Source: Parcubacteria group bacterium (lineage in GTDB: Bacteria > Patescibacteriota > Patescibacteriia > UBA11705 > JABHMO01). From it: a stretch of 64,000 nucleotides of DNA. This document shows, piece by piece, positions 1,270-62,464 of the stretch (positions are counted from its first letter, which is position 1; every line of letters begins with the position of its first letter). The position numbers and the translations under genes were made by a program. Under the pieces are notes generated by a model, which was not told the DNA's origin, did not search any database, and saw nothing but the letters and a program-made list of their open reading frames with translations. Location of the stretch: the NCBI GenBank assembly GCA_043797615.1, contig JAZDPK010000030.1, positions 9,067 through 73,066 on the forward strand. The letters run 5' to 3'.

Positions 1270-1376
1270 ATGTAGTTCTCAATAAAGATTTAAATTATTT
1301 TGGACAAATCAGTTGTGTGAGATATCCCATCATGTTGTGAATAACTTTCCAAAGGTCAATATAATAACATGATCAA

Positions 1377-1488: not shown

Positions 1489-2876
1489 TTATTTTTTAAA
1501 TTCTAATTCAAGATAATTTCCTTGCGGCAGATTGGACAAACTCTTTTCGTCGACCAGGCGGATGTTTTTCGATTTAAATCCCAGCTTCTCGAAAATTTCC
1601 ATTGACGCAATCGGCATCTTTTTGCCATCGGAAATGACGAAAACCGCCGAGTTTTCCCGCGTGCGCACTATCTCGCCGTCGCGGATCCTGACGCTGTCGC
1701 CGTCGGCATATTTGTCCAGCTCATCCCTGGCGACGCGGATGATTTTTTTATGCGGAAAATTGATCAGCATTATATCCTTCGCGATGAGCGGATATTTGAC
1801 GCCGTCCTGGACAAAGAAAACGCCGCCGGTGGCCTTGTCCTGCAAAAGAGCGCCAGTCGGGTATGCGCTGGACAATGTAATCGGCTCGCCGTCCGCAAAC
1901 AAGGCGAAATCTTCCATCGGCGCGGCCACGAATTCCTCCGGATTGAAGCCGAGCGTGCGCCAGACTTTGTCCGATTCGAATTTGCGCAGAGTGTCGCCGA
2001 CCAGGAGATATACGTTGCCGAAAGGCGATTTCAAAATCGAATAATTCGGGTATTTGATGGGTTTGCCGATCTCATATTTCTCAAGCTCGTTTTCGCTGAC
2101 CAAGATAATTTTGTTAATGTCGTAGCGCGACAGCAAGGCGGTCTTGGACGCGAAGAGCCTCCGCCGGCCGTCTAAAATGATCCAAACGGCCTTCCGGTCG
2201 CTGTCCGCCTGCAAAAGCGTGCCGTCCGGATAAGACTGGGTAAACCAGCGATTCCAAATTTTCCAAAAATTGTAATTCCCGGATACGTGCGGCGTATAGT
2301 TGTACAAATTAGCGGTTGCCTGATTTTGCAGGGCGACGCGCTGGCCGTCGATATTGTAAATTTTTCCGATTATTTTCAGCCAGCCGTTGTTCGCGTTGTC
2401 AATGCACCAGCGCTGCCAGCCGGCGGCGTAATCCACTTGGATTCCGAATCCTTTGTATTTTTGCACGGCCAGATCATTCATATTCGAATCGTCGGAAATG
2501 CCGTATCCCATTGCCCAGTCGTATTGTTTCTGAGTCGGGCTGTTGTCTTCTACCAAGCTTTGTTCTTTTGCAGCATGACCAAGAGGAATTGCGGATTGAT
2601 CTTGTATTCCTGGCTGGCGTCGTAGATTATTTCGGCGGCGCTTTTTTGAACACCATTTTTGTTCAAGGTTGAATATTGCGCCAGCGTGCCGGACTTTTTC
2701 ATCAGGAAATCTTGAATATCAGTAAGCGACATGGAATTGTAATTGGTCAAATCCTTGTCAACGATAATGTTGCCATTGTCAAAATCAGAAGCCAAAGCGT
2801 TCAACGGCGCGATTACGAATAAAATCGTAAAAATGGATAAGATGATTTTTAGTTTAGGCATAAGATAATTATACAA
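1489..2876 (-). pseudogene. Secreted protein of unknown function, split into two ORFs (2550..2876 and 1489..2556) by a 1-nt frame break at an A-run
   Basis: The upstream ORF has a signal-peptide-like N-terminus (KLKIILSIFTILFVIAPLNALA) and ends ...LLVMLQKNKAW*. The downstream ORF starts only at a TTG. Shifting by -1 in CAAAAG (about 2564-2569) gives a continuous ...LLVMLQKEQSLVEDNSPTQKQYDWAMGYG..., and LQKEQSL is a motif I remember from cell-wall-associated proteins. Confidence 0.55.
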
Positions 2877-2919
2877 AATAATGGTTAAACATGCAACCTG
2901 CGTTAATCGTCAAACAAAA

Positions 2920-2947
2920 CACTTCCATAGTACATAGTATGGAAGTG
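2920..2947 (-). terminator. Rho-independent terminator downstream of clpB
   Basis: A perfect 10-bp stem, CACTTCCATA/TATGGAAGTG, with an 8-nt loop. On the minus strand it is followed by TTTTGTTTG. Confidence 0.65.
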
Positions 2948-2967
2948 CCTGTTACATTTTATTTCCT

Positions 2968-5592
2968 TTATTTAAACGCCACTTTTCCTCCCTGATAATC
3001 CACTTTGATTTTATTTTTCACCGTTCCTTTGATAATCTGCAGTGCCAGCTGGTCGAGAATTTTATTTTGAATCAAGCGCTTGAGCGGCCGCGCGCCGAAC
3101 GCCGGATCAAATCCTTCGTCCGCCAGCATATTTTTCACCGCGTCCGTGAAGGCGATATCGAGGTCCTTGCCTGCCAATCGCTTGGCCACCTTGGCGAGCT
3201 GGAAGTCGACGATTTGCTTGATGTCCGCTTTGGACAAGGCGTCGAAAATGATGATTTCGTCGATGCGGTTCAGAAATTCCGGCCGAAAATGATCTTTCAG
3301 CATGGACATTATTTTCTTGTCGGTATTTTCCTTTTGCGAAACGCTGTGGCTGCTGAATCCAAGGTCGCTCTTGTTCAGCGATTCCAGGATCATGTCGCTG
3401 CCGATGTTCGAAGTCATTATGATCACCGTGTTTTTAAAGTTAACCGTGCGGCCTTTCGCGTCAGTCAGGCGGCCGTCGTCTAGGAGTTGCAGAAGCATGT
3501 TGAAAACCTCCGGATGCGCTTTTTCGATTTCATCGAACAGCACGACGGAGTAGGGCCGGCGCCTGATCTGCTCGGTCAATTGCCCGCCTTCATCATAACC
3601 AACGTAGCCAGGAGGCGAGCCGATCAATTTCGAGACGGCGTGCTTCTCCATGTATTCGGACATGTCCACGCGAACAACAGCATCCTCGCTGTTGAACATG
3701 AATTCCGCCAGCGCCCGCGCCAATTCGGTCTTGCCCACGCCGGTCGGGCCGAGGAACAAGAATGAACCGATCGGCCGGTTTTCCTCTGAAATTCCGGCTC
3801 TCGATCTGCGCAAAGCGTTCGCCACCGCTTGAATCGCGCGCTCTTGGCCGACAACGCGCTTGGAAAGATCGGTTTCCGCATGCGCCAATTTTTCGATTTC
3901 GCTCTGCAGCATTTTCGACACCGGAATGCCAGTCCACTTTGAAACAACCGCGGCGATGTCTTCGGCCGTAACTTCTTCCTTTAAAATCTTATGGCCGCCC
4001 GGGCCGGCTTGCAATTTGCGCAGCTTCGCCTGCAATGTTTTGATTTTTTTCTCGTTTTCCGGAATCTTGCCGAAACGGATTTCCGCGACTTTGTCGTATT
4101 CCGCTTTTCTTTCCAAAATTTCTGATTCCTGCTTCAATTTGTCGATCTGCTTTTTCGAATCCTGGATTTGCACGATCAATTCCTTTTCCTTGCGCCAATG
4201 CAGTTCAAGCTCATGCTCTTTTTCTTTCAATTCTTCAAGGCGCTTGGTGATGTCGCGCAGTTTATTTTTAACGTCAGCGCTTTTCTCGCGGCTGATCGCT
4301 TGCTTTTCAATTTCCAGTTTTTTTACTTTGCGCTTCAACTGATCAAGCTCGATCGGCATGCTGTCAAGCTCGATGCGGAGCGCGGAAGTGGCTTCGTCGA
4401 TCAGATCGATCGCCTTGTCCGGCAGAAACCGATCGGTGATGTAGCGCTGCGAAAGGCGGGCGGCCTCGATGATCGCGTCGTCCGTGATATGCACGCCGTG
4501 GTGCACTTCGTATTTTTCCTTGATGCCGCGCAAAATCGAAATCGCGTCGTCCAGGCTCGGCTCGGCGACGTAAACCGGCTGAAACCTTCTTTCCAAAGCC
4601 GCGTCTTTTTCAATGTATTTCTGATATTCCTTCAAAGTCGTCGCGCCTACGCAGCGCAATTCGCCGCGCGCCAAAGCCGGCTTCAGCATGTTTGACGCGT
4701 CCAGGCTGCCTTCGATCGCGCCCGCGCCGACGATCGTGTGCAATTCGTCGATAAAAATAATGTATTTGTCCTTATTTTTTCGGATTTCGCTTAAAACGGT
4801 TTTTAAACGTTCCTCGAATTCGCCGCGGAATTTCGATCCGGCGATGAGGCTGCCGATGTCCAAATTCAAAACTTCCTTGTTCTTCAAATTTTCCGGCACG
4901 TCGCAAGAGACAATGCGCTGGGCCAATCCTTCGGCGATCGCGGTCTTGCCCACGCCCGGCTCGCCGATCAGCACCGGATTATTTTTTGTTCGACGTGATA
5001 AAACCTGAAGCACGCGCCGTATTTCCTCGTCGCGTCCGATGATCGGGTCCAGTTTTTCCTCGCGCGCCATCTGCGTCAGATTGATCGTGTATTTTTCCAG
5101 CGCCTGGTATTTGCTTTCCGGCTCGGGCGAATCAACCCGCTGTCCGCCGCGCACTTCGGCCAATATTTTCAGCGCCGCGTTATAATCGATGCCGTAGGAA
5201 ATCAAAATTTCCGCGGCGAGCGAATCGACTTGCAGCAAAGACAGGAAAAGGTGCTCGGTGCTGATGAATTCGTCGCCGAGCTTCTTCGCTTCTTTTTCCG
5301 CGCTCACCATCGCGTAATTCATCTGCGGAGTGATGAAAACCTGGCCGGCCATGGTCGGCTGCTTCATCTGGCTTTTCGGCATGCGCTTCAAATTGGCTTC
5401 GACATCGGCGATCAGCTGCTCGAAAGGCACTTCCATTTTTTTTAACACTGTGAGCACGATGCTTTGATCCTGTTGAAGCAGAGCGTAAAGCAGGTGGATC
5501 GTATCGACCTGGGAATGTTTGTATTCGAACGCCGCGGCCTGCGACGCTTGCATAGCCTGCTGGCTGTTCATGGTGAATTTGTTGATATCCAT
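2968..5592 (-). CDS. clpB: ATP-dependent chaperone/disaggregase ClpB
   Basis: 874 aa with two AAA+ modules ([16 protein letters not shown]), a long coiled-coil middle domain and a Clp N-domain. Confidence 0.97.
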
Positions 5593-5742: not shown

Positions 5743-6747
5743 TTACAGAATAATCGCGATCGCCGCTCCGCATTTCGGGCAAAACGGTTCAGCCAATTTA
5801 TTGGAAATTGCGTAGCCATCGCGTTTGATCAGCAATTCGCCGCAAGCCTGGCAATAGGTGTTTTGTTTGATTGGATCGACGGCATTTCCCGCGTAAACAT
5901 AATGTAGCCCGGCGCTTTTTCCGATCTGACAAGCCAAATCCAGAGATTCGGCCGGCGTGGACGGCAGGGCGCGCAATCTGTAAGCCGGGTGAAACGCGGA
6001 GATATGCCAAGGGATATTCAGATTTAAGCCGGCAATGAATTCAGCGATGCAGCCGAGTTCACGCTCATTGTCGTTTAGGCCGGGGATGACGAGCGTTGTT
6101 ATTTCAACATGAATTTTACTTCGGCAAACCCGCTCGATATTTTCCAGGATCGGTTTCAAACTCGCCCCGCAGACTTTCCGGTAGCATTTATCAGTGAAAA
6201 ATTTCAAATCGATGTTAATCGCGTCAAGATGCGGCAAGATCGCGTTGAAGGTCTCATTGGAAAAATAGCCGTTGGACACCCAGACGTTTTTCAATCCGCG
6301 CTTTCTCGCCAGCTTCATTATTTCCAAAGCGAATTCGACAAATACGGTCGGTTCGGTATATGTATAAGCAATGCTCCGGCAATCGCTATGAAGCGCCGCC
6401 AACGCGACATCGCCGGACCGGGCCAAAACGCCGGGCAGTCGGTCGCCGGCCTTGCCGATTTGCGATATTTCCGAATTTTGGCAATTCAGGCAGTGAAAAT
6501 TGCAGCCAGGGCTGGCGATTGAATAGGCGAAACTGCCCGGAAGAAAATGATAAAGCGGCTTTTTTTCGATCGGATCGATTCGCCGGGCGATCAATTTGCC
6601 GTAGTTCAGGCTGTAGAGCCGGCCGCCTACGTTTTTCTTTGCCTTGCACATGCCGAATTTTTTATCCGCAATAACGCAAAAATGGCAGCATGCCCGGCAT
6701 TGGACAACCTTGTTCGCCGTTCGAGCATAAAATAGCGTCTGTTTCAT
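5743..6747 (-). CDS. Radical SAM enzyme, AmmeMemoRadiSam-system (AmrS)/PflA-like
   Basis: 334 aa with the CNFHCLNCQN (CxxxCxxC) cluster motif and a Cys-rich N-terminus (CRACCHFC). The overall layout matches AmrS-type activases as I remember them. Confidence 0.75.
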   Translation of the reverse strand: MKQTLFYARTANKVVQCRACCHFCVIADKKFGMCKAKKNVGGRLYSLNYGKLIARRIDPIEKKPLYHFLPGSFAYSIASPGCNFHCLNCQNSEISQIGKAGDRLPGVLARSGDVALAALHSDCRSIAYTYTEPTVFVEFALEIMKLARKRGLKNVWVSNGYFSNETFNAILPHLDAINIDLKFFTDKCYRKVCGASLKPILENIERVCRSKIHVEITTLVIPGLNDNERELGCIAEFIAGLNLNIPWHISAFHPAYRLRALPSTPAESLDLACQIGKSAGLHYVYAGNAVDPIKQNTYCQACGELLIKRDGYAISNKLAEPFCPKCGAAIAIIL

Positions 6748-8234: not shown

Positions 8235-8873
8235 TCACTGCAGTATATTGCCGTCCGACTCTCTTGCCCGTTCTGCGTAATGCACGATCAGGTCGCCGGT
8301 TTCATCCGCTTTCGCTTTGATTTGCACGTTCGAATTTAATTCAATTATCTTTCCGATGCGAATCAGCGCGATAATTTTCACCATTCCGTCGATCTTTTTC
8401 TGATGCATGATCACGTGATTATCCGAAGATAAAATTAATTTGCCGCATTCACATGCGGGAAGATCAAAGCCGTAAACCTTGTTGTCGCAAAACCTGGCCT
8501 TTTCAAGATCGTACCAGGCGGCCTGGATCACAATCAAACGCCGGTCCTGAAGTTTGAGATCATCGACATGGACGCCTGTGATTATTCGCAATTCGTTTAT
8601 CGGCACGGACGCGGCGCTTAATATCACGCCGCTTTCTCGCACTGGAAAAGCCGAGGTGATTTCATCCACCTTTGGCAAATCCGAATAATTAAGCTCGGGA
8701 TAGACGAAAACGATCTGCGTCCGCGTGCGTGCGTTCGTCAGGCAATAGCATGTGGTCTGCCCGATGAACTTCTGGGTCAATTTCAGCGAGAAGAAAATCG
8801 GCCAAAACGTATTGCTGATTTCGCATATCGAATCCCCCTGGTCTCCTCCTTTGATTCTGATTCTTCTATCCAT
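8235..8873 (-). CDS. Hypothetical protein (212 aa)
   Basis: A strong SD, AAAGGAGG, lies 8 nt before the ATG. A TTGACA-type promoter sits near 8950-8980. I recognise no motif. Confidence 0.6.
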   Translation of the reverse strand: MDRRIRIKGGDQGDSICEISNTFWPIFFSLKLTQKFIGQTTCYCLTNARTRTQIVFVYPELNYSDLPKVDEITSAFPVRESGVILSAASVPINELRIITGVHVDDLKLQDRRLIVIQAAWYDLEKARFCDNKVYGFDLPACECGKLILSSDNHVIMHQKKIDGMVKIIALIRIGKIIELNSNVQIKAKADETGDLIVHYAERARESDGNILQ

Positions 8874-15140: not shown

Positions 15141-15763
15141 AGTATTTGCATCGTATATTGTTTCGCATAATGCTAATTAAGAGAGACAATATACAATAAA
15201 TATAACATGCGCAAATCAAATTGACGATCAATCCTTGTGGATAATCTTTTATATGCAATCATATTCGTTCAAGAGAATAAACGCTATAATCGCAATATAA
15301 AGCCTCGTTTTTATGCCAAATCGGGATATATATATGTATCAAGGGAATTGAACACCTATACATAGATGACCCTTAAACATGATTTAACATACATATACGT
15401 CATAAATATTGTCTTTAAAACCAATTTAATTTTTTTTAAACTGAAATCAGGATCAATCCGGCCAAGTCGCCTTTATTAGCATTAACAATATTTATTCCAA
15501 ACAATTTTCAATCCGTCTCTACACTCTGTTTCTCGAACCGCTCTGCTTTTATGTGTCGTAAAATAATTAACAAGGGAACGGAAGAATATTATTAAAATTA
15601 TAAAACCGCCATATCATTGATACGACGGTTTGATTTTCAATAATTAAGAACAACCACCGGTCAGATGTCCAGGATCATGGTTGATAAGAGTATTCGTCAT
15701 GCAAAAAACGCGCATACTTTTTTGCAACGCTTTTTTGTTTTCACTTTCACAATCATTATCCTT

Positions 15764-15949
15764 TCACCAGCTCGCGATCGGGCCGCGAACGATTTCATCG
15801 AGCTCCTCGTCGGTCGGTCCGCGCTTGTTCTTTTGACGCGCGACTTCGGCGTTGTGAATATCCAGAACCAAATTCGACACCACTCCCCTCTCATTGCGGC
15901 CGTCCGGACCCACGCCTGCCCATTCGTGCTTTTTCTGTTTTTCAGACAT
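15764..15949 (-). CDS. Small hypothetical protein (61 aa, MSEKQKKHEWAGVGPDGRNERG...)
   Basis: A strong SD, AAGGAGGA, lies 6 nt before the ATG at 15949. The sequence is GC-rich relative to the AT-rich flank. Confidence 0.5.
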   Translation of the reverse strand: MSEKQKKHEWAGVGPDGRNERGVVSNLVLDIHNAEVARQKNKRGPTDEELDEIVRGPIASW

Positions 15950-18713: not shown

Positions 18714-19166
18714 TTATGACCAGGATTGCTTGTTCTCGCGCAAACCAGCGTTAATCATTTTTGCCAGAGCTTGGCCTTCATCATTCTCCGCTTGGCTGAA
18801 ATTGTATCGTTCGAGCGTTTGATACATTATTTCCCGGCCAGGACTGATTGATAATTTGTCCAAATAGGCGTTTACCACCAAGCCGCTGCGGATGCCATGC
18901 TGATTAAGATATGACACGGCGACGCGAACAATGAACTGAACCGCGCTCAAGCCGTTGAATTCATCCGGCAAATTTGAATTGCTAAAAATCAAAATTCTCC
19001 CGCTTGCCCGGTCGTAATAGCCGTTGGCGCCGGCGCAAATCCACTTTTCACCGGCGATTTCAGTATAATGAGCATTGCCGTTCCAAGATTCATTGGCCAA
19101 CAGTTTCCACATTTCCGTTTCCATCTTTTCCAGATTTTCGCCGATCAATCGTTCAGAATTGATCAT
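18714..19166 (-). CDS. Hypothetical protein (150 aa)
   Basis: The SD AGGAGG lies 5 nt before the ATG. It overlaps the lysS TAG stop (TAGGAGG), which suggests translational coupling. Confidence 0.6.
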   Translation of the reverse strand: MINSERLIGENLEKMETEMWKLLANESWNGNAHYTEIAGEKWICAGANGYYDRASGRILIFSNSNLPDEFNGLSAVQFIVRVAVSYLNQHGIRSGLVVNAYLDKLSISPGREIMYQTLERYNFSQAENDEGQALAKMINAGLRENKQSWS

Positions 19167-22400: not shown

Positions 22401-22589
22401 AGTAAAATAAATACAGGCCAGTCAGACCTGATCTCGATTCCTGTTAATTATTATAAATTAAGTATAGCGTATTTTAATTTTATTGTAAATGTTATCCACA
22501 GGGGTAAATAAAATTCCACTCGACTTCAATCGGCGATTTCCTTTTCAAAAGTTTTTTTTGACTTAAGTCAAGCGGAATTTTCAATTTCT

Positions 22590-36283: not shown

Positions 36284-37144
36284 TTAAGGATTTTTTTTCT
36301 TCACCCTCCGCCGTTTGATCGCTTTTTTCAATTCAAGGACAAAATCCGCCGGTTCGATTTCATTGGTAAATTCAAACGCTTTGATTTTCTTCGCTTGCGC
36401 TTTGGCTGATTTGAACTCCGGCTTTTTAATCATTTCCGAATTGAATTCTGACCGATTGCGGCTTTCCGTTAAAATCGCGTTTTCCAGAAAATCAATCGTT
36501 GCGTTCGGTTTGTTCATTTGCGCGTCAAGATCTTTGAAAATTTCGTTCAACGCCTGGTTTATTTTATTTTTTATTTCCAGCGCTTTATCGATAATTTGCT
36601 GCTTGGAAAGCTGCTTTTCAACGAGAATAAAAATTTCTTCGCCGCCGAGGCGCGCGGAAAAGCCGCTATCCTTGGTGCATTCGAGCAAAACCTGCCCGAC
36701 TTTTTGCAAAGCAATATCGCCGAACGTATGGGAAAACTCATTGTAAGCCTTGAAAAAATCAATGTCCATACTGACGACGGAAATTGTTCTTATCTTATCC
36801 GAAGAATTTTCAACGGCTTTGAAATATTCGATTCCTTTTTTAAACAATCCTCTCCGGTTTTCCAAATGCGTCAATCCATCCATGTCCACCGATTCTTCGA
36901 ACCGTTCCAGTAATCCGGCGGCCGCAGTCAATTCATCTTCCGCAAATTCGCCTTTCAAATCGGTTTTCAAAATCTCGGGCAATCGCACTTGCTTAGAAAT
37001 ATCCTGCAATTCATTTTCAATTTTCTTCTTTTTCGCGACAAGCCAGGCGTTTTCCTTGGCCGATAAAAAATCATTCGACCGTTTTCCCTGTTCGCCTGCC
37101 AGAGTTGCCAGCGCCAATATGTTGTTCGCTTCGTTTTTATGCAT
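36284..37144 (-). CDS. GGDEF-domain protein (GGEEIF variant)
   Basis: Contains MDIDFFKAYNEFSHTFGD ... ARLGGEEIFILV. The gene ends in the A8 run ...KKKNP*. Confidence 0.7.
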   Translation of the reverse strand: MHKNEANNILALATLAGEQGKRSNDFLSAKENAWLVAKKKKIENELQDISKQVRLPEILKTDLKGEFAEDELTAAAGLLERFEESVDMDGLTHLENRRGLFKKGIEYFKAVENSSDKIRTISVVSMDIDFFKAYNEFSHTFGDIALQKVGQVLLECTKDSGFSARLGGEEIFILVEKQLSKQQIIDKALEIKNKINQALNEIFKDLDAQMNKPNATIDFLENAILTESRNRSEFNSEMIKKPEFKSAKAQAKKIKAFEFTNEIEPADFVLELKKAIKRRRVKKKNP

Positions 37145-41001: not shown

Positions 41002-41688
41002 TCATGGTTGTCCTGTTTTTTTAGATTGCTTTATCGAACTGATCACTATAACAAATTCGCCTTTTTGTTTATCCTTAACTTGCTCAATCACTTCATCGAT
41101 ATTTCCGCGGTAAATCGACTCGAACACCTTCGTCATTTCGCGGCAAACCACGATTTTGCGGTTTGAACCGATGTGATTTTTCAATTCAGTCAGATTTTTC
41201 AGAACGCGGTGCGGCGAATCGTAATAGCATACTGTCATGTCTGCATTTTCTATCGTTTCATAAAATTTCGTTTTGCCTTTGTGCGGAATAAAACCGAGGA
41301 ATAAAAATTTATCCGTGGGCAAACCGGAAACCGATAAGGCGGAAATCGCCGCGCACGGACCCGGAATCGGAATAATGTTAGCGCCGGATTGAAGCGCAAT
41401 TTCCACGATTTTATTTCCCGGATCGGAAATGCCCGGCGTGCCCGCGTCCGTCGCGTAAGCGATTTGATTGAATTGATTTATTGATTTTTTGATTTCTTCT
41501 TCTCTTGAATGCTGGTGGAAACTGATCATCCTTTTGTTGACTTCATAATGCTTGAGTAATTTTCCCGTCTGCCGCGTGTCTTCGCAGAAAATAACGTCAA
41601 CGCTTTTTAAAATTTCAATCGCTCTCAAAGTCATGTCCTTGAGATTTCCGATCGGCGTCGCGACAATGTACAGATTTTTGTTTTCCAT
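41002..41688 (-). CDS. rsmI: 16S rRNA (cytidine1402-2'-O)-methyltransferase RsmI
   Basis: 228 aa. Contains LYIVATPIGNLKDMTLRA...IFCEDTR. Confidence 0.9.
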   Translation of the reverse strand: MENKNLYIVATPIGNLKDMTLRAIEILKSVDVIFCEDTRQTGKLLKHYEVNKRMISFHQHSREEEIKKSINQFNQIAYATDAGTPGISDPGNKIVEIALQSGANIIPIPGPCAAISALSVSGLPTDKFLFLGFIPHKGKTKFYETIENADMTVCYYDSPHRVLKNLTELKNHIGSNRKIVVCREMTKVFESIYRGNIDEVIEQVKDKQKGEFVIVISSIKQSKKTGQP

Positions 41689-41791
41689 AAAACAATATTA
41701 TTGTAACGGAAAATTGCGAATTTGTCCATTTACCGACTAATGGATTGAAGTGAAATTTGCGCTTTATTGATAATCGCGATATAATGTTTTT

Positions 41792-41876
41792 GCCTTTGAA
41801 TTTCTTGCGGGATCAAGGTTCAGGGGCGTTCCCCACATGCCCCGTTGGTAATTTCGCCGACGGGGCTCTTTTTTTA
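41792..41876 (+). ncRNA. Candidate small RNA (about 85 nt)
   Basis: A TTGCGC-17-TATAAT promoter (41757-41785) is followed by a terminator GCCCCGT/ACGGGGC (41839-41866) plus TCTTTTTTT. There is no ORF. Confidence 0.3.
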
Positions 41877-42052
41877 ATAAAAAATACTATCCACAAATGC
41901 CTTGCATATTATTTTTGCATAGCTGTCTTATAATGATTTCGCTCACATAAACATGCGAAAACGCATTCGAAGCGCCTCGCTTTTGCGATGGAATGAGGCG
42001 CTTATTTTTTATTAATTTTAGATAAAAAATGTATATTTAATAATCAACGCTG

Positions 42053-42081
42053 TTGACAATATTTTAATTTTATGCTATACT
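42053..42081 (+). promoter_or_regulatory. Consensus sigma70 promoter of the orphan structured transcript
   Basis: TTGACA (42053-42058), a 17-nt spacer, then TATACT (42076-42081). Confidence 0.65.
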
Positions 42082-42336
42082 ATCCACATGTTCCTTAAAA
42101 ATGGTCGGGTCGTTTATCCCGGCCGGGAAAACTGGGGCTGAAAAAGCGCCCCCAAAAAAACGGGGTCTGACCAGGCCCCACCTGCGAAGCGCCGCTTCGC
42201 TCGAGCTAATGGACTCCCGTTGTCAAAGGGAGAGGTCTCGAGCGCATGCGCCGCAAAAATCCTTAAACCGTCGGCCGATTCATTCGCATATTGCGATGAA
42301 TCCAAGCCCCTACTAGTTAGAAAGGAGGAACAGGGA

Positions 42337-42369
42337 ATGAGTACGCTATATCCGTGTCCGTTTCTGTAG
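42337..42369 (+). CDS. Micro-ORF 1: MSTLYPCPFL*
   Basis: AGAAAGGAGGAAC lies 8 nt before the ATG. It is a paralog of micro-ORF 2. Confidence 0.4.
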   Translation: MSTLYPCPFL

Positions 42370-42493
42370 TGACGATTTGTGTCGCGGCATGTTCAACCCG
42401 CCGAGCCAAATAAATCCGGGCGCATAATCCTACGCCAGCGCCCAACGCCTAAAACGGATTTCGGCCGGCACGACCTTAAGAAAGGAGGAACGG

Positions 42494-42526
42494 GTGGCAT
42501 ATCTTTATCCAGTTCCGTTCTACTAG
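42494..42526 (+). CDS. Micro-ORF 2: (GTG)MAYLYPVPFY*
   Basis: An identical AGAAAGGAGGAAC lies 5 nt before the GTG. The shared L-Y-P-x-P-F is encoded with synonymous differences. Confidence 0.4.
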   Translation: MAYLYPVPFY

Positions 42527-42748
42527 CGTAGTGGTCGTGGGTGCGGCTGACAACCTGTAAAAGTTAGGCCGCGTTTATCAACCTCCTCAACAACGGGCGC
42601 AGGAGTTATTACTATGACGATGTAGTTACGAGGGCACCCGAATACAAGGAAAGACGCCGGGCAAAGGTGAAGTTCAGATCACCTTAATAACTGAACGGGC
42701 GCGAGACTTCGCGTCTGGCCATACTGGATAAGGCTTGAATCCAGCTCG

Positions 42749-42784
42749 ATCAGGAAGCGACACAGCTTGCCTGATTTCTTTTTT
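42749..42784 (+). terminator. Terminator 1 of the orphan transcript
   Basis: ATCAGGAAGC...GCTTGCCTGAT stem with one bulge, followed by TTCTTTTTT. Confidence 0.6.
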
Positions 42785-42794
42785 AAAAAAATCC

Positions 42795-42828
42795 CACTAT
42801 CATGCTCTATAGCATGATAGTGTTTTTT
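42795..42828. terminator. Terminator 2 (bidirectional)
   Basis: A 12-bp perfect stem, CACTATCATGCT/AGCATGATAGTG, with a 4-nt loop, then TTTTTT. An A-tract lies upstream. A related hairpin lies at about 51494-51520. Confidence 0.65.
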
Positions 42829-42865
42829 ACTTTTAAGATTTCTGTTTTTATGCTACATTAAAAAC

Positions 42866-43744
42866 ATGAAATCCAAACGGAACAAAACCATTTTCGTTGT
42901 CTTGGAAGATTACAAGCGCTTCCCTATCTTAAAATTAAACTCTAAATTCCAGGCTCTAAATTCTAAACAAATTAAAAATTCAAAATCTAAAATACAAAAT
43001 CAAATCTTTTTCGGCGATTCATTGAGAGAAATGAAAAAATTGCCGAAAGGGAGCATTGATTTAACCGTAACCGATCCGCCGTACACGATTAAACGCGATT
43101 TCGGCAAAGGCACAATCAATACCGATTTAAACAATTTCACTGCCTGGTGCGAACGATGGATTGCGGAATGCGCCAGATTATTAAAGAAGAGCGGCTCGAT
43201 TTACATTTGCATAAACTGGGAAGCGTCGTCGATTGTTGAGGAAATATTGAAAAAATATTTTATTATTCAAAACCGGATAACCTGGAAGCGCGACAAAGGC
43301 CGCGGCGCCAAGCGAAATTGGAAAAACAACCTGGAAGACATCTGGTTCGCCACGAAATCGAACGATTACACTTTCAATTTAAGCGACGTTAAAATAGAAA
43401 AACCGGTCATCGCGCCGTATGTCGACGAGCGCGGCAATCCGAAGGACTGGAAAATCGTTGACGGCAAAAAAATCCGCCTCACCCATCCGTCGAACATCTG
43501 GACCGACCTGGTCGTGCCTTTCTGGTCCATGCCGGAAAACACCGAGCATCCCACGCAAAAGCCGGAAAAATTAATCGAAAGAATAATCCTCGCAAGTTCG
43601 AACAAAGGCGACTTAGTATTCGACCCGTTCATTGGCTCGGGCACCACCGCGGTCGTCGCGAAAAAACTGGGCCGGAATTATCTGGGGTTTGAAATTGAAA
43701 AAAAATTTTATATTTTAACGCAGAAACGGTTGGCTTCGATTTAA
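42866..43744 (+). CDS. Beta-class DNA methyltransferase (N6-A or N4-C), with no nuclease partner in sight
   Basis: DLTVTDPPY (motif IV) precedes DPFIGSGTT (motif I). Codons ~24-45 are made of the CTAAATTCTAAA repeat sequence. Confidence 0.85.
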   Translation: MKSKRNKTIFVVLEDYKRFPILKLNSKFQALNSKQIKNSKSKIQNQIFFGDSLREMKKLPKGSIDLTVTDPPYTIKRDFGKGTINTDLNNFTAWCERWIAECARLLKKSGSIYICINWEASSIVEEILKKYFIIQNRITWKRDKGRGAKRNWKNNLEDIWFATKSNDYTFNLSDVKIEKPVIAPYVDERGNPKDWKIVDGKKIRLTHPSNIWTDLVVPFWSMPENTEHPTQKPEKLIERIILASSNKGDLVFDPFIGSGTTAVVAKKLGRNYLGFEIEKKFYILTQKRLASI

Positions 43745-43807: not shown

Positions 43808-44398
43808 ATGAAACTTTTAATCGCCACGTACAATCAAGGAAAGTTAAAAGATTACAAAAATCTTCTCAAAGATTATCCGCTGGAAATCGTCTCGCTTGAT
43901 GACGAGAAAATTACCGACGACATCGAGGAAAACGGCCAGACATTCGAGGAAAACTCCCTATTGAAAGCCAGATTTTTCTGCAAGCTGGCAAATATGCCGA
44001 CTTTAGCCGACGATGGCGGGCTGGTAATTGACGTTCTTAACGGCGAACCGGGCGTGCACAGCCGGCGCTGGAAAGGATATCGCATGACCGACCAGGAAAT
44101 GGTCGATTATGCTCTTGAGCGCATGCAAGGCATCCAGCGAGAACAACGAACAGCACGCATGGTGGCGGTTTTATCTCTTGTTTTCCCGGATGGACGCGAA
44201 TTTCAAAGCAAAGCGGCAATCGAGGGAATAATTTCCGAAAAGCAGGAAACGGCGATCATGCAGGGGTACCCGTTTCGGTCGATCTTTTTCGTCAAGGAAC
44301 TGGGAAAAATTTTCACGGATTTGACAGAAGAGGAACACGACCGAATCAACCACCGGATTCCGGCGATCAAAGAGCTTTCGAAGCATTTCATGGAATGA
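43808..44398 (+). CDS. rdgB: Non-canonical purine NTP pyrophosphatase (RdgB/HAM1)
   Basis: 196 aa. Starts MKLLIATYNQGKL and shows a Ham1 pattern. Confidence 0.85.
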   Translation: MKLLIATYNQGKLKDYKNLLKDYPLEIVSLDDEKITDDIEENGQTFEENSLLKARFFCKLANMPTLADDGGLVIDVLNGEPGVHSRRWKGYRMTDQEMVDYALERMQGIQREQRTARMVAVLSLVFPDGREFQSKAAIEGIISEKQETAIMQGYPFRSIFFVKELGKIFTDLTEEEHDRINHRIPAIKELSKHFME

Positions 44399-61489: not shown

Positions 61490-62464
61490 TTAGCTTTTAC
61501 TTAATGTCTTTAAATTTCTAAAGATATCTATCCCCACCGGACACGCTTTCACGCACCTACCGCATCCGACGCAGCCGTAGTATGAAAATTCTTCCGGAAT
61601 CCGAACAAACTTATGGAAATACCAGAAATACAATCGCTTGGCCACCGTGTCCAATTTTTTGAAGCCGCCGGCGATTTTGGAAAATTCCGGATAAAAACAG
61701 TTCGCCCAATGCCGTTCTTTTCTAACGCCGTTCAATTGCGGCTCGTCGACTTGATTGAAGCAAAAGCACGTCGGACAAACGATCGAGCATTTGCCGCATG
61801 CCAGGCAAATTTCCGATAATTCATTCCAGAGCTGATGCTTTTCATTGTTTTCAACGGCTTGGCGTCCGGCAATAATCCGCGGATTAACGCCTTGCTCCGG
61901 AACCAATCCGGCGAATTCGATATTTTCGTAATCTTTAACGTTATTTTTTTCCAAAAACTTCTGGCCTTTTTGCGTGCCGGAAAACAAAAGCAGATTCCCG
62001 TCCTTCTGTCTCTCGATAAAAACGTCAAACAGCAAATGCTCCAAAACGTTTTCCTCGTATTCCGGCTGAAAAACTTTATATTTGCGCAAATCGTTTTCAA
62101 TGCCGTTCGCGTAACCGACGATGATCATGTTTTGCCTTCTTTTTTGAAAATAAATATCCTTGGCGAAAACATGCTCGAACAAAGTGAACGCCCGCAGATC
62201 GAGAATGTTGATTCCCCAAACAACGGCTTTTTCTTTTTCAAATTTTTCCTTGAATATTCCGTCTTTAATGTGGAACATTGTTTCTCGCGGCGGCAGGAAA
62301 ATCGATTTGAACGGATAAGCCGGGATATCGCTTGACCAATCTATTTCCGAACCGTTTTTTATTTTTTCAACGAAAATTTGGCCGTCAGTTTTCACCGGCG
62401 CGTATACGATAAAATCATCGCGCAAAGTATTTGCGATCAATCTCTTGATTTCCGCTAATTTCAT
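61490..62464 (-). CDS. Hydrogenase beta subunit (4Fe-4S dicluster, AsrA-like)
   Basis: Contains CLACGKCSIVCPTCFC ... CVGCGRCVKACP. Confidence 0.85.
   Translation of the reverse strand: MKLAEIKRLIANTLRDDFIVYAPVKTDGQIFVEKIKNGSEIDWSSDIPAYPFKSIFLPPRETMFHIKDGIFKEKFEKEKAVVWGINILDLRAFTLFEHVFAKDIYFQKRRQNMIIVGYANGIENDLRKYKVFQPEYEENVLEHLLFDVFIERQKDGNLLLFSGTQKGQKFLEKNNVKDYENIEFAGLVPEQGVNPRIIAGRQAVENNEKHQLWNELSEICLACGKCSIVCPTCFCFNQVDEPQLNGVRKERHWANCFYPEFSKIAGGFKKLDTVAKRLYFWYFHKFVRIPEEFSYYGCVGCGRCVKACPVGIDIFRNLKTLSKS

Follow-up and report, generated by a model that had tools for sequence, protein, structure and literature searches.

A 64,000-nt stretch of a Parcubacteria group bacterium genome (GenBank assembly GCA_043797615.1, contig JAZDPK010000030.1, positions 9,067 to 73,066 of the forward strand; hereafter the window) contains two open reading frames (ORFs) of ten codons, encoding MSTLYPCPFL and MAYLYPVPFY, each behind an extended Shine-Dalgarno (SD) sequence. 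These micro-ORFs are members of a family present in at least five lineages, whose substitution pattern shows purifying selection for Tyr-Pro-(small residue)-(Gly/Pro/Trp)-Phe-x-stop (YPxxF), and they appear to be translated. In the window they lie on a structured RNA of about 700 nt which is predicted to be stand-alone and strongly expressed, and they are tentatively identified as cis-acting termination-arrest micro-ORFs that would park ribosomes on this RNA. All functional statements below are inferences from sequence.

The YPxxF micro-ORF family

Related loci were retrieved via the protein homologues of RsmI and of a methyltransferase, whose genes flank the RNA in the window, and the contigs were then fetched, so that the search was blind to the peptides and their ORFs. 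The window and these loci together contain eleven micro-ORFs, one to four per RNA, of which nine carry the exact motif YPxxF-x-stop and two are variants. All 11 possess an in-frame start codon with an SD sequence 3-8 nt upstream. The peptides, each written up to its stop codon, are as follows.

Window: MSTLYPCPFL, MAYLYPVPFY
L013: MAMLYPTPFG, MAYLYPAPFY
L022: MRPYPSWFP, MYPSGFT, MRQRYPSGFQ, MRRRYPSGEL
L020b: MTRYPTGFL
L029: MSRRYPSGFT, MRRCSSGFL

A six-frame scan for YPxxF-x-stop over 344 kb returned 12 matches in the homologous RNA loci, each with an SD sequence and an in-frame start codon, and two matches outside these loci in the same 344 kb, neither of which has a start codon or an SD sequence. 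As aligned from the stop codon, the Tyr, Pro and Phe codons are near-invariant at codon positions 1 and 2 (10 of 11 ORFs; the two variant ORFs depart). Within the nine exact-motif ORFs these three codons differ at position 3 only and always synonymously, with both Tyr codons (TAT, TAC), every CCN codon and both Phe codons (TTT, TTC) in use. The residue after Pro is always small (S, T, A, C or V) and is followed by G, P or W. In the four L022 ORFs the Ser after Pro is encoded by AGC, AGT, TCT and AGT, which includes one switch of codon family from AGY to TCT.

The closest comparison is that with L013. The orthologue of micro-ORF 1 (MAMLYPTPFG) retains L-Y-P-x-P-F with the codon changes CTA to CTG and TTT to TTC, while the remaining positions are free. 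The orthologue of micro-ORF 2 (ATG GCG TAC CTG TAT CCG GCG CCT TTT TAC TAA, MAYLYPAPFY) shows seven synonymous differences over 6.5 synonymous sites (Sd = 7) and one non-synonymous difference over 20.5 sites (Nd = 1). Pooled over three orthologue pairs, the proportion of synonymous differences per site (pS) is 0.78 and that of non-synonymous differences (pN) 0.22 (Fisher p = 6e-4). Between the ORFs, the RNA of the window can hardly be aligned with that of L013, and the conservation of the peptides within such poorly alignable RNA supports selection at the peptide level.

A preliminary description of the locus had proposed, from the synonymous differences CTA/CTT, CCG/CCA and TTT/TTC between the two window ORFs, that selection acts on the peptide and not on the RNA alone. 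These differences are correct, and the proposal is strengthened by the occurrence of Y-P-x-x-F-x-stop in at least four further lineages with synonymous changes in the Tyr, Pro and Phe codons. Substitution rates among homologues, which it had named as a check, show the synonymous excess given above, and broken reading frames, which it had named as a refutation, were not encountered among the YPxxF ORFs, whose starts and stops remain in frame.

The SD boxes and ORFs of the window, all on the plus strand, are listed below.

42319..42331: SD box 1, AGAAAGGAGGAAC, one of two exact copies in 64 kb
42337..42369: micro-ORF 1, MSTLYPCPFL, from ATG to TAG
42479..42491: SD box 2, AGAAAGGAGGAAC, the second exact copy in 64 kb
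42494..42526: micro-ORF 2, MAYLYPVPFY, from GTG to TAG

In shuffled sequence, 0.08 matches to AGAAAGGAGGAAC are expected when a single mismatch is tolerated, and a count of two did not arise in any of 100 shuffles. Its part AGAAAGGAGG would pair over 10 nt with the canonical 3' tail of 16S rRNA, the 16S gene of the host itself being located outside the window. The coordinates and peptides of both ORFs are exactly those first described, and the duplicated 13-mer is confirmed with coordinates one base further left. The GC hairpins reported after the ORFs exist, 14-16 nt past the stops (GCGG 42384-42387/CCGC 42398-42401 and GCGGC 42543-42547/GCCGC 42568-42572), yet their position is not conserved; L013 lacks about 120 nt 3' of ORF2. 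A suspected degenerate third copy (ATG AAT CCA AGC CCC TAC TAG, MNPSPY, 42296-42316) is present as sequence, whereas its behaviour as an ORF is unsupported: it has no SD sequence, its ATG is placed in the 3' arm of a hairpin (about 42277-42303), and no ORF occurs at that place in L013.

Stop codons and the companion ORF

Exactly one variable codon separates Phe from the stop codon in all 11 ORFs, while Tyr is found anywhere from codon 2 to codon 5, preceded by one to four residues. The stop codon is UAG in eight of the 11 ORFs, UAA in three and UGA in none. By comparison, among 97 long ORFs in these genomes UAG is the stop codon of 10, which gives a binomial P of about 1.6e-6 if the 11 ORFs are taken as independent despite the orthologue and paralogue pairs among them. 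UAG is recognised by release factor 1 (RF1) only. The fixed distance from Phe to the stop codon and the bias to UAG point to an action at termination.

A second SD-led micro-ORF accompanies the YPxxF ORFs on the L020b RNA (L020, about 2090-2113, minus strand) and on the L029 RNA (about 1343-1375, minus strand), encoding MPRAPP followed by Y-stop or by LIEL-stop. The MPRAPP codons of the two copies differ synonymously only (CCG/CCA, CCC/CCG and CCG/CCT), and the sequence past them is unrelated, as would be expected of a site where ribosomes come to a halt. Proteomes avoid RAPP/RxPP, an established and EF-P-refractory arrest core (PMC10951233, PMC12992588).

Use of SD sequences is sparse in the window, where an SD match of at least 5 nt precedes at most 11 of 56 long ORFs, alternative starts being allowed.

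The RNA and its structure

The micro-ORFs of the window are located in a gap of 1.17 kb that is bounded by rsmI (41002-41688, minus strand) and by an N6/N4 DNA methyltransferase gene (42866-43744, plus strand). The preliminary description had overlooked that they belong to an RNA of about 700 nt running from promoter to terminator, with a pseudoknotted 3' domain, and that some relatives have this RNA and its SD sequences without YPxxF. The features of the RNA, all on the plus strand, are the following.

42053..42081: promoter of the RNA, TTGACA, 17 nt, TATACT, with TG ahead of the -10 box; 11 of 12 consensus positions
42088..42790: predicted stand-alone RNA of about 700 nt, from promoter to terminators, GC-rich, without a long ORF
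42088..42200: 5' domain, nearly identical in L013, with a compensated hairpin (GGTCGGG/CCCGGCC in the window, GGACGG/CCGTCC in L013)
42277..42303: conserved hairpin holding the ATG of MNPSPY, paired in the minimum free energy (MFE) fold; a hairpin of different sequence in L013
42666..42744: conserved 3' domain of four helices P1-P4, with a conserved GCCA linker and an AAGGC loop
42666-42670 with 42679-42683: P1
42672-42677 with 42691-42696: P2 (pseudoknot)
42697-42701 with 42712-42716: P3
42724-42729 with 42739-42744: P4
About 42748..42785: first intrinsic terminator, stem GATCAGG...CCTGATT followed by a T-run, as read from the sequence
42795..42830: second terminator hairpin, potentially bidirectional, 12-pair stem (42795-42822) followed by a T-run

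The promoter layout TTGACA-N17-TGnTAnnnT is also found upstream of the homologous RNAs in L013, L015, L022, L030, L020b and L029. The first terminator is kept in L013 with compensating changes and has equivalents which end the RNA in L015, L022 and L030, while the CATG...CATG hairpin of the second is kept in L013 and L015. The GC content of the RNA is 0.51-0.58 against 0.31-0.40 in its flanks, and its MFE is -253 kcal/mol (z = -3.0). As both strands fold better than shuffled sequences (z = -3.0 and -3.7), the folding energy cannot discriminate between them, unlike the promoter, the terminators and the orientation of the SD sequences and ORFs. At the 5' end, GUUCCUU would be complementary to GAGGAAC in the SD boxes. 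A leaderless 17-codon ORF at the AUG of the RNA 5' end was rejected, as it shows many non-synonymous changes between the window and L013 and its region is the compensated hairpin.

The 3' part is the most conserved region of the RNA. Helices P1 and P2 form a predicted H-type pseudoknot with an A-rich linker. The evidence for the architecture of this domain is mixed. In a hand-curated comparison, P1-P4 pair in the window, L013, L015, L022 and L030, and P1, P2 and P4 in L016, which has no definable P3. The helix sequences vary with the lineage (for P2, GTTCAG/CTGAAC, GTCCGG/CCGGAC, GTCGG/CCGAC and TCGG/CCGA), while the order of the P1/P2 pseudoknot is constant. A covariance model (R1) matches the five clear members from which it was built, 42672-42744 of the window and four relatives, at E = 1e-11 to 3e-17, with no other match in the DNA collected here. 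An automated count lends modest support, with 72.6% of cells paired and an observed covariation score reached by 16 of 500 shuffles, this analysis being limited by register shifts in the alignment and by the few sequences.

A gap of about 1 kb also separates rsmI from the methyltransferase gene in L013/L014 (RsmI 88% identical), L015 (RsmI 69%), L016 (RsmI 65%), L022 (RsmI 64%) and L030 (methyltransferase 76%), and is absent in L031, where only 172 nt and no RNA separate the same gene pair, and in L017, L019 and L001. In a further clade, comprising L020/L021 and L029, the micro-ORF RNAs lie about 1.5 kb from rsmI. Their scaffold has a different conserved core, without homology to the window-type RNA by blastn or R1. 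As this core is unrelated to the window scaffold, the YPxxF module is carried by two scaffolds.

Neither the window nor any of nine related loci gave a match at the gathering score of an Rfam 15 covariance model (OLE, GOLLD, ROOL, HEARO, raiA, RNase P, 6S, signal recognition particle (SRP) RNA and others), and matches at E up to 10 were at chance level only; the RNA is thus not assigned to RNase P, SRP or 6S RNA. ARAGORN found no tRNA or transfer-messenger RNA (tmRNA) in the window RNA or the related loci. The RNA resembles tmRNA as a structured RNA with an ORF of about ten codons and downstream pseudoknots, and differs from it in having no tRNA-like domain or ...LAA tag and in having several ORFs, each with an SD sequence and a start codon (ATG or GTG). 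Both tmRNA and two-piece tmRNA were rejected for want of a tRNA-like domain.

Termination arrest as the favoured interpretation

The YPxxF ORFs are interpreted, with some hesitation, as termination-arrest micro-ORFs acting in cis. The YPxxF nascent chain would act at the peptidyl-transferase centre and in the upper exit tunnel, so that, when the A site is occupied by the stop codon, RF1-dependent release would be slowed or blocked in a manner resembling MsrDL, TnaC and PepNL, and each module, owing to the delayed release, would hold a ribosome on the RNA. More speculatively than any other step, the parked ribosomes and the long SD/anti-SD duplexes may form roadblocks which stabilise the RNA, as ribosomes do against RNase J1 (PMC5737220), or may together sense the translation or termination status and control the RNA; the target of this control would be the conserved pseudoknotted 3' domain, not a downstream protein gene. 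It is possible, though doubtful, that the RNA represents a new kind of riboregulator, in which a structured RNA with an array of arrest micro-ORFs (YPxxF-x-UAG, and RAPP in some lineages) captures ribosomes, either to sense RF1 or termination capacity or, by parking the ribosomes, to stabilise its own 3' domain, and which controls no protein gene.

Among the roles listed in the preliminary description, an action as a stalling or leader peptide fits best in view of the distance from Phe to the stop codon, the UAG bias and the companion RAPP ORF. The stalling type is retained, whereas a proline-rich character is not, the second Pro being replaced by Gly or Trp in other lineages; a RiPP (ribosomally synthesised and post-translationally modified peptide) core or a secreted peptide finds no adjacent modifying or export gene in its support. 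The statement that no described system matches still stands, as literature searches gave no description of this RNA or of the peptide family.

Among known systems, short termination-arrest leader peptides come closest; the present ORFs depart from them in being arrayed, in lying on a stand-alone RNA, in their link to UAG and in their host, a member of the candidate phyla radiation (CPR). Peptides of six to fourteen codons stall at stop codons behind strong ribosome-binding sites (RBSs), as in MsrDL (PMC10314930) and PepNL (PMC11890864). MsrDL (MYLIFM), from the mefA/msrD operon, has a stringent RBS and stalls at its UAA codon in a manner that depends on which stop codon is used (PMC10314930). 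Like the YPxxF ORFs, it is a tiny ORF with a stringent RBS in which amino acids and not codons are decisive and the identity of the stop codon is conserved. It differs in that it needs a macrolide inducer, prefers UAA, and is found as a single copy before an intrinsic terminator gating a downstream gene, whereas the ORFs described here prefer UAG, number one to four per RNA and have no gene to regulate; MsrDL has no similarity to YPxxF. PepNL blocks RF2 at UGA (PMC11890864), and in both TnaC and PepNL the release factor is kept from acting by a short nascent chain whose C-terminal residues have a constant spacing to the stop codon (PMC8429421, PMC11890864). In contrast to the YPxxF ORFs, for which stalling is a prediction, those peptides have 14-24 residues, are biased to RF2 and UGA and control downstream genes, and there is no homology between the two groups.

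The MPRAPP companion of L020b and L029 shares the RAPP core with ApdA, ApdP and SecM-like peptides (PMC10951233, PMC12992588, PMC10987492), whose known representatives, longer proteins of the secretory or membrane type, are encoded upstream of Sec/YidC or other genes, while the companion has 7-10 codons and is carried by a non-coding-like RNA. The R-A/G-P-P core is absent from the window micro-ORFs and occurs in this companion ORF only. With macrolides present, short MRLR peptides stall (PMC8298421), which MRLRTFPQP of L015 and the L022 peptides starting with MRQR or MRRR may recall, as a lead only.

As in known arrest peptides, conservation is seen at the amino-acid level and the distance of conserved residues from the stop codon is fixed while the N-terminus varies; a coupling to a downstream gene through a terminator or an SD-sequestering structure was not found in the window, L020 or L029. 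Several further observations weigh against termination arrest. YPxxF matches no known arrest peptide, and the transcript contains no gene to be regulated, given the two terminators and the separate methyltransferase promoter in the window and the convergent next gene in L020. L015 and L030 retain the RNA scaffold and strong SD sequences with other tiny ORFs (MRLRTFPQP, MLVLYD, MTAKSWS and MTPSR), and L016 retains the scaffold without such ORFs and without an SD sequence in the RNA. The family is small, its 11 ORFs, some of them related by descent, coming from five species-level lineages and mostly from one sequencing project. R[AG]PP is common by chance in non-coding frames, and the conservation of MPRAPP is based on two sequences. 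Finally, YPxxF ORFs are found on two non-homologous RNA scaffolds, as would be predicted if the free peptide were the product.

If the reading as termination arrest is true, these would be the first conserved family of 7-10-codon ORFs described in CPR/Patescibacteria, and the first arrest-type micro-ORFs arrayed on an independent structured RNA and not in the leader of a regulated gene. Y-P-small-G/P/W-F-x-UAG would then be a short testable motif for nascent-chain interference with RF1-dependent termination, and a handle on post-transcriptional control in unculturable organisms with very few classical regulators. Whichever reading holds, the case shows that 'non-coding' GC-rich islands of reduced genomes can conceal genes that are invisible to gene callers.

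Alternative explanations

The free peptides themselves may be the product, the RNA being a stable, highly expressed polycistronic mRNA for signals, inhibitors, tunnel binders or minimal RiPP cores of 7-10 residues, and the 5' and 3' domains serving to stabilise the message only. Selection at the peptide level, up to four copies per RNA, a near-consensus promoter with maximal SD sequences and the presence of one motif on two unrelated scaffolds agree with this explanation, under which the peptides would be among the smallest directly encoded bioactive peptides known. Directly translated tiny precursors do exist, namely the heptapeptide of microcin C and the pentapeptide of biarylitides, whose genes mccA (7 codons) and bytA (5 codons) resemble the YPxxF ORFs as genes of at most ten codons with a strong RBS and a conserved peptide. 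Those genes, though, adjoin modifying enzymes (MccB and a P450, respectively), whereas no tailoring-enzyme or exporter gene was found near six loci among the called genes searched with Pfam, which are housekeeping genes only. No modifying enzyme, exporter or receptor gene adjoins any locus, the neighbours being rsmI, metG, tatD, the methyltransferase gene and ham1. A free peptide would moreover leave the UAG bias unexplained, and it is the N-terminal length and the last residue that are free while the distance to the stop codon is fixed. The peptide is also lost in L015, L016 and L030, in which the RNA is retained. This explanation is considered unlikely.

In a second explanation the SD boxes alone are functional, as binding sites for 30S subunits, as stabilisers similar to STAB-SD or as a ribosome sponge, and the short ORFs are incidental. 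The boxes would be complementary over 8-10 nt to the canonical 16S 3' tail in a genome where SD sequences are rare, and in L015, L030 and L035 strong SD sequences stand close to the RNA 5' end, with unrelated tiny ORFs or no ORF behind them. STAB-SD of cryIIIA and the ribosome roadblock of hbs stabilise Gram-positive RNAs. They have an SD sequence of the GAAAGGAGG type with extended 16S complementarity, such as is predicted for the window boxes, and their bound ribosome shields the downstream RNA from a 5' exonuclease. They differ in being placed near the 5' end of an mRNA without need of any particular peptide, whereas box 1 lies about 230 nt into the RNA and precedes a peptide under selection. 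A ribosome at the strong SD sequence of hbs, which blocks RNase J1, provides a precedent for such a roadblock (PMC5737220). Since neither the codon-periodic conservation with its synonymous substitutions nor the fixed Phe-x-stop spacing and the UAG bias are explained by the boxes, their acting alone is improbable.

The RNA might instead be a long attenuating leader of the N6/N4 methyltransferase gene, comparable to those of erm and msrD, in which stalling controls read-through of the terminator. The RNA and this gene have the same orientation and adjoin directly in the window, L013, L015, L016, L022 and L030, and a jumbo-phage contig presents an SD sequence with MEYPSGFG-stop, a terminator-like hairpin and a gene in succession. 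The two consecutive terminators in the window are, however, followed by the extended -10 promoter of the gene itself and an apparently leaderless ATG, over 220 nt separate the last micro-ORF from the terminator, no co-oriented gene lies downstream of the RNA in L020 and L029, and L031 keeps the gene pair with a 172-nt gap and no RNA. Such a leader is therefore regarded as quite improbable.

Base pairing between SD boxes and ORFs bears on the last explanation. In the MFE fold of the window RNA, each box pairs with codons of the ORF behind the other box, box 1 with 42504-42524 in ORF2 and box 2 with 42346-42359 in ORF1, which suggests mutual sequestration in the model; as a conserved structure this cross-pairing was rejected, being present in the window and L013 only and absent in L022, L020b and L029, and it fails to explain the peptide motif, as ORFs are also built from AGY and GGN codons. 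The disfavoured explanation that the RNA alone is conserved, with pyrimidine-rich Pro, Phe and Ser codons forming anti-SD-like strands and the reading frames being accidental, can draw on this fold, on the pairing of the L013 SD1 with its own ORF and on that of CCUUCU in L022 ORF3 with AGAAGG, as read from the sequence, but is scarcely credible given that such pairing is absent for most ORFs of L022, L020b and L029, that the motif is also found where Ser is encoded by AGY and Gly by GGN, codons without resemblance to an anti-SD sequence, and that variation is strictly at third positions while starts, stops and SD spacing are always kept.

Further searches and related elements

No further family members were found by pattern scans of metagenomes and genomes. 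By nhmmer, the window RNA was unmatched in all 12 loci returned by an RsmI scan of genome contigs. Two motif scans for the 3' domain in metagenome contigs gave no matches other than six chance matches in coding DNA, and one such scan in viral contigs gave none. Two patterns of SD sequence plus micro-ORF matched viral contigs in coding regions or out of frame, with the exception of one intergenic match.

This match (L040, 658-694) is located on a 206-kb phage contig (IMGVR_UViG_3300028883_000032) and consists of AGGAGG followed by ATG GAA TAC CCA TCA GGT TTT GGT TAG, encoding MEYPSGFG. It is followed by a terminator-like hairpin (about 765-815) and a gene for a CCA-adding enzyme (866-2527). The ORF could be a true leader-peptide version of the YPxxF motif or a chance match; a search for relatives of this phage found none.

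In L016, the equivalent gap contains a 175-nt tRNA-like element (2879-3053, minus strand) with a 7-bp acceptor stem (CAGGTGG/CCACCTG), a T-arm (GTAGG-TTCAATT-CCTAC) and an ACCA end, which is recognised neither by ARAGORN nor by Rfam. An upstream small RNA (sRNA) unit of L022 (243-265 in coordinates of the reverse-complemented gap) has the strong SD sequence GAGGAGG followed by ATG TGA, a minimal start-stop ORF.

Neighbouring genes and other features of the window

The methyltransferase gene has its own extended -10 promoter, TGCTACATT, which ends 6 nt upstream of the ATG at 42866, and this start looks leaderless. Homologues of 279-297 aa span the full 292-aa ORF (42866-43744), while the public record of this metagenome-assembled genome lists 237 aa, so that the start in the record was apparently placed too far downstream. 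Identities of 67-88% across many Patescibacteria make this enzyme unusually well conserved for an orphan DNA methyltransferase.

Upstream of the RNA, the gap contains two more small promoter-terminator units, 41745-41875 and about 41900-42010, which are candidate sRNAs and are both kept in L013. Neither belongs to an Rfam family, the best match being suhB/mmgR at the chance level of E = 0.066. One to three small RNA units are present in the equivalent gap of L015, L016, L022, L030 and L035, and the gap between rsmI and the methyltransferase gene appears to act as an sRNA island.

A sequence identical to the DnaA-box consensus, (T)TATCCACA, is found 6-10 nt upstream of the -35 box at several sRNA and gene promoters. 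Such DnaA-box-like sites are located in the window at 41887-41895, 42080-42088, 15236-15243 (minus strand) and 22493-22500, the 41887 and 42080 copies reading CTATCCACA, and also occur in L015, L030, L035, L020 and L029. The window contains four copies of TATCCACA, all intergenic, against 0.7 expected, and the sequence may be a promoter-proximal regulatory site.

Clear SD-led genes are few in the window and include 8235-8873 (minus strand), 18714-19166 (minus strand) and 43808-44398 (plus strand). Many start codons are found 5-8 nt past a -10-like box, for example those at 42866 and of 61490-62464, 36284-37144 and 5743-6747 (all three on the minus strand), and this proximity suggests widespread leaderless initiation. 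In this SD-poor CPR bacterium, initiation is probably leaderless for the most part. A further SD-led ORF of 62 codons (15760-15948, minus strand; GAGAAGGAGGATAAA ATG, MSEKQKKHEWAGVGPDG...) has its own consensus promoter and is probably a real small-protein gene, the 143-aa frame opposite to it on the plus strand being probably spurious.

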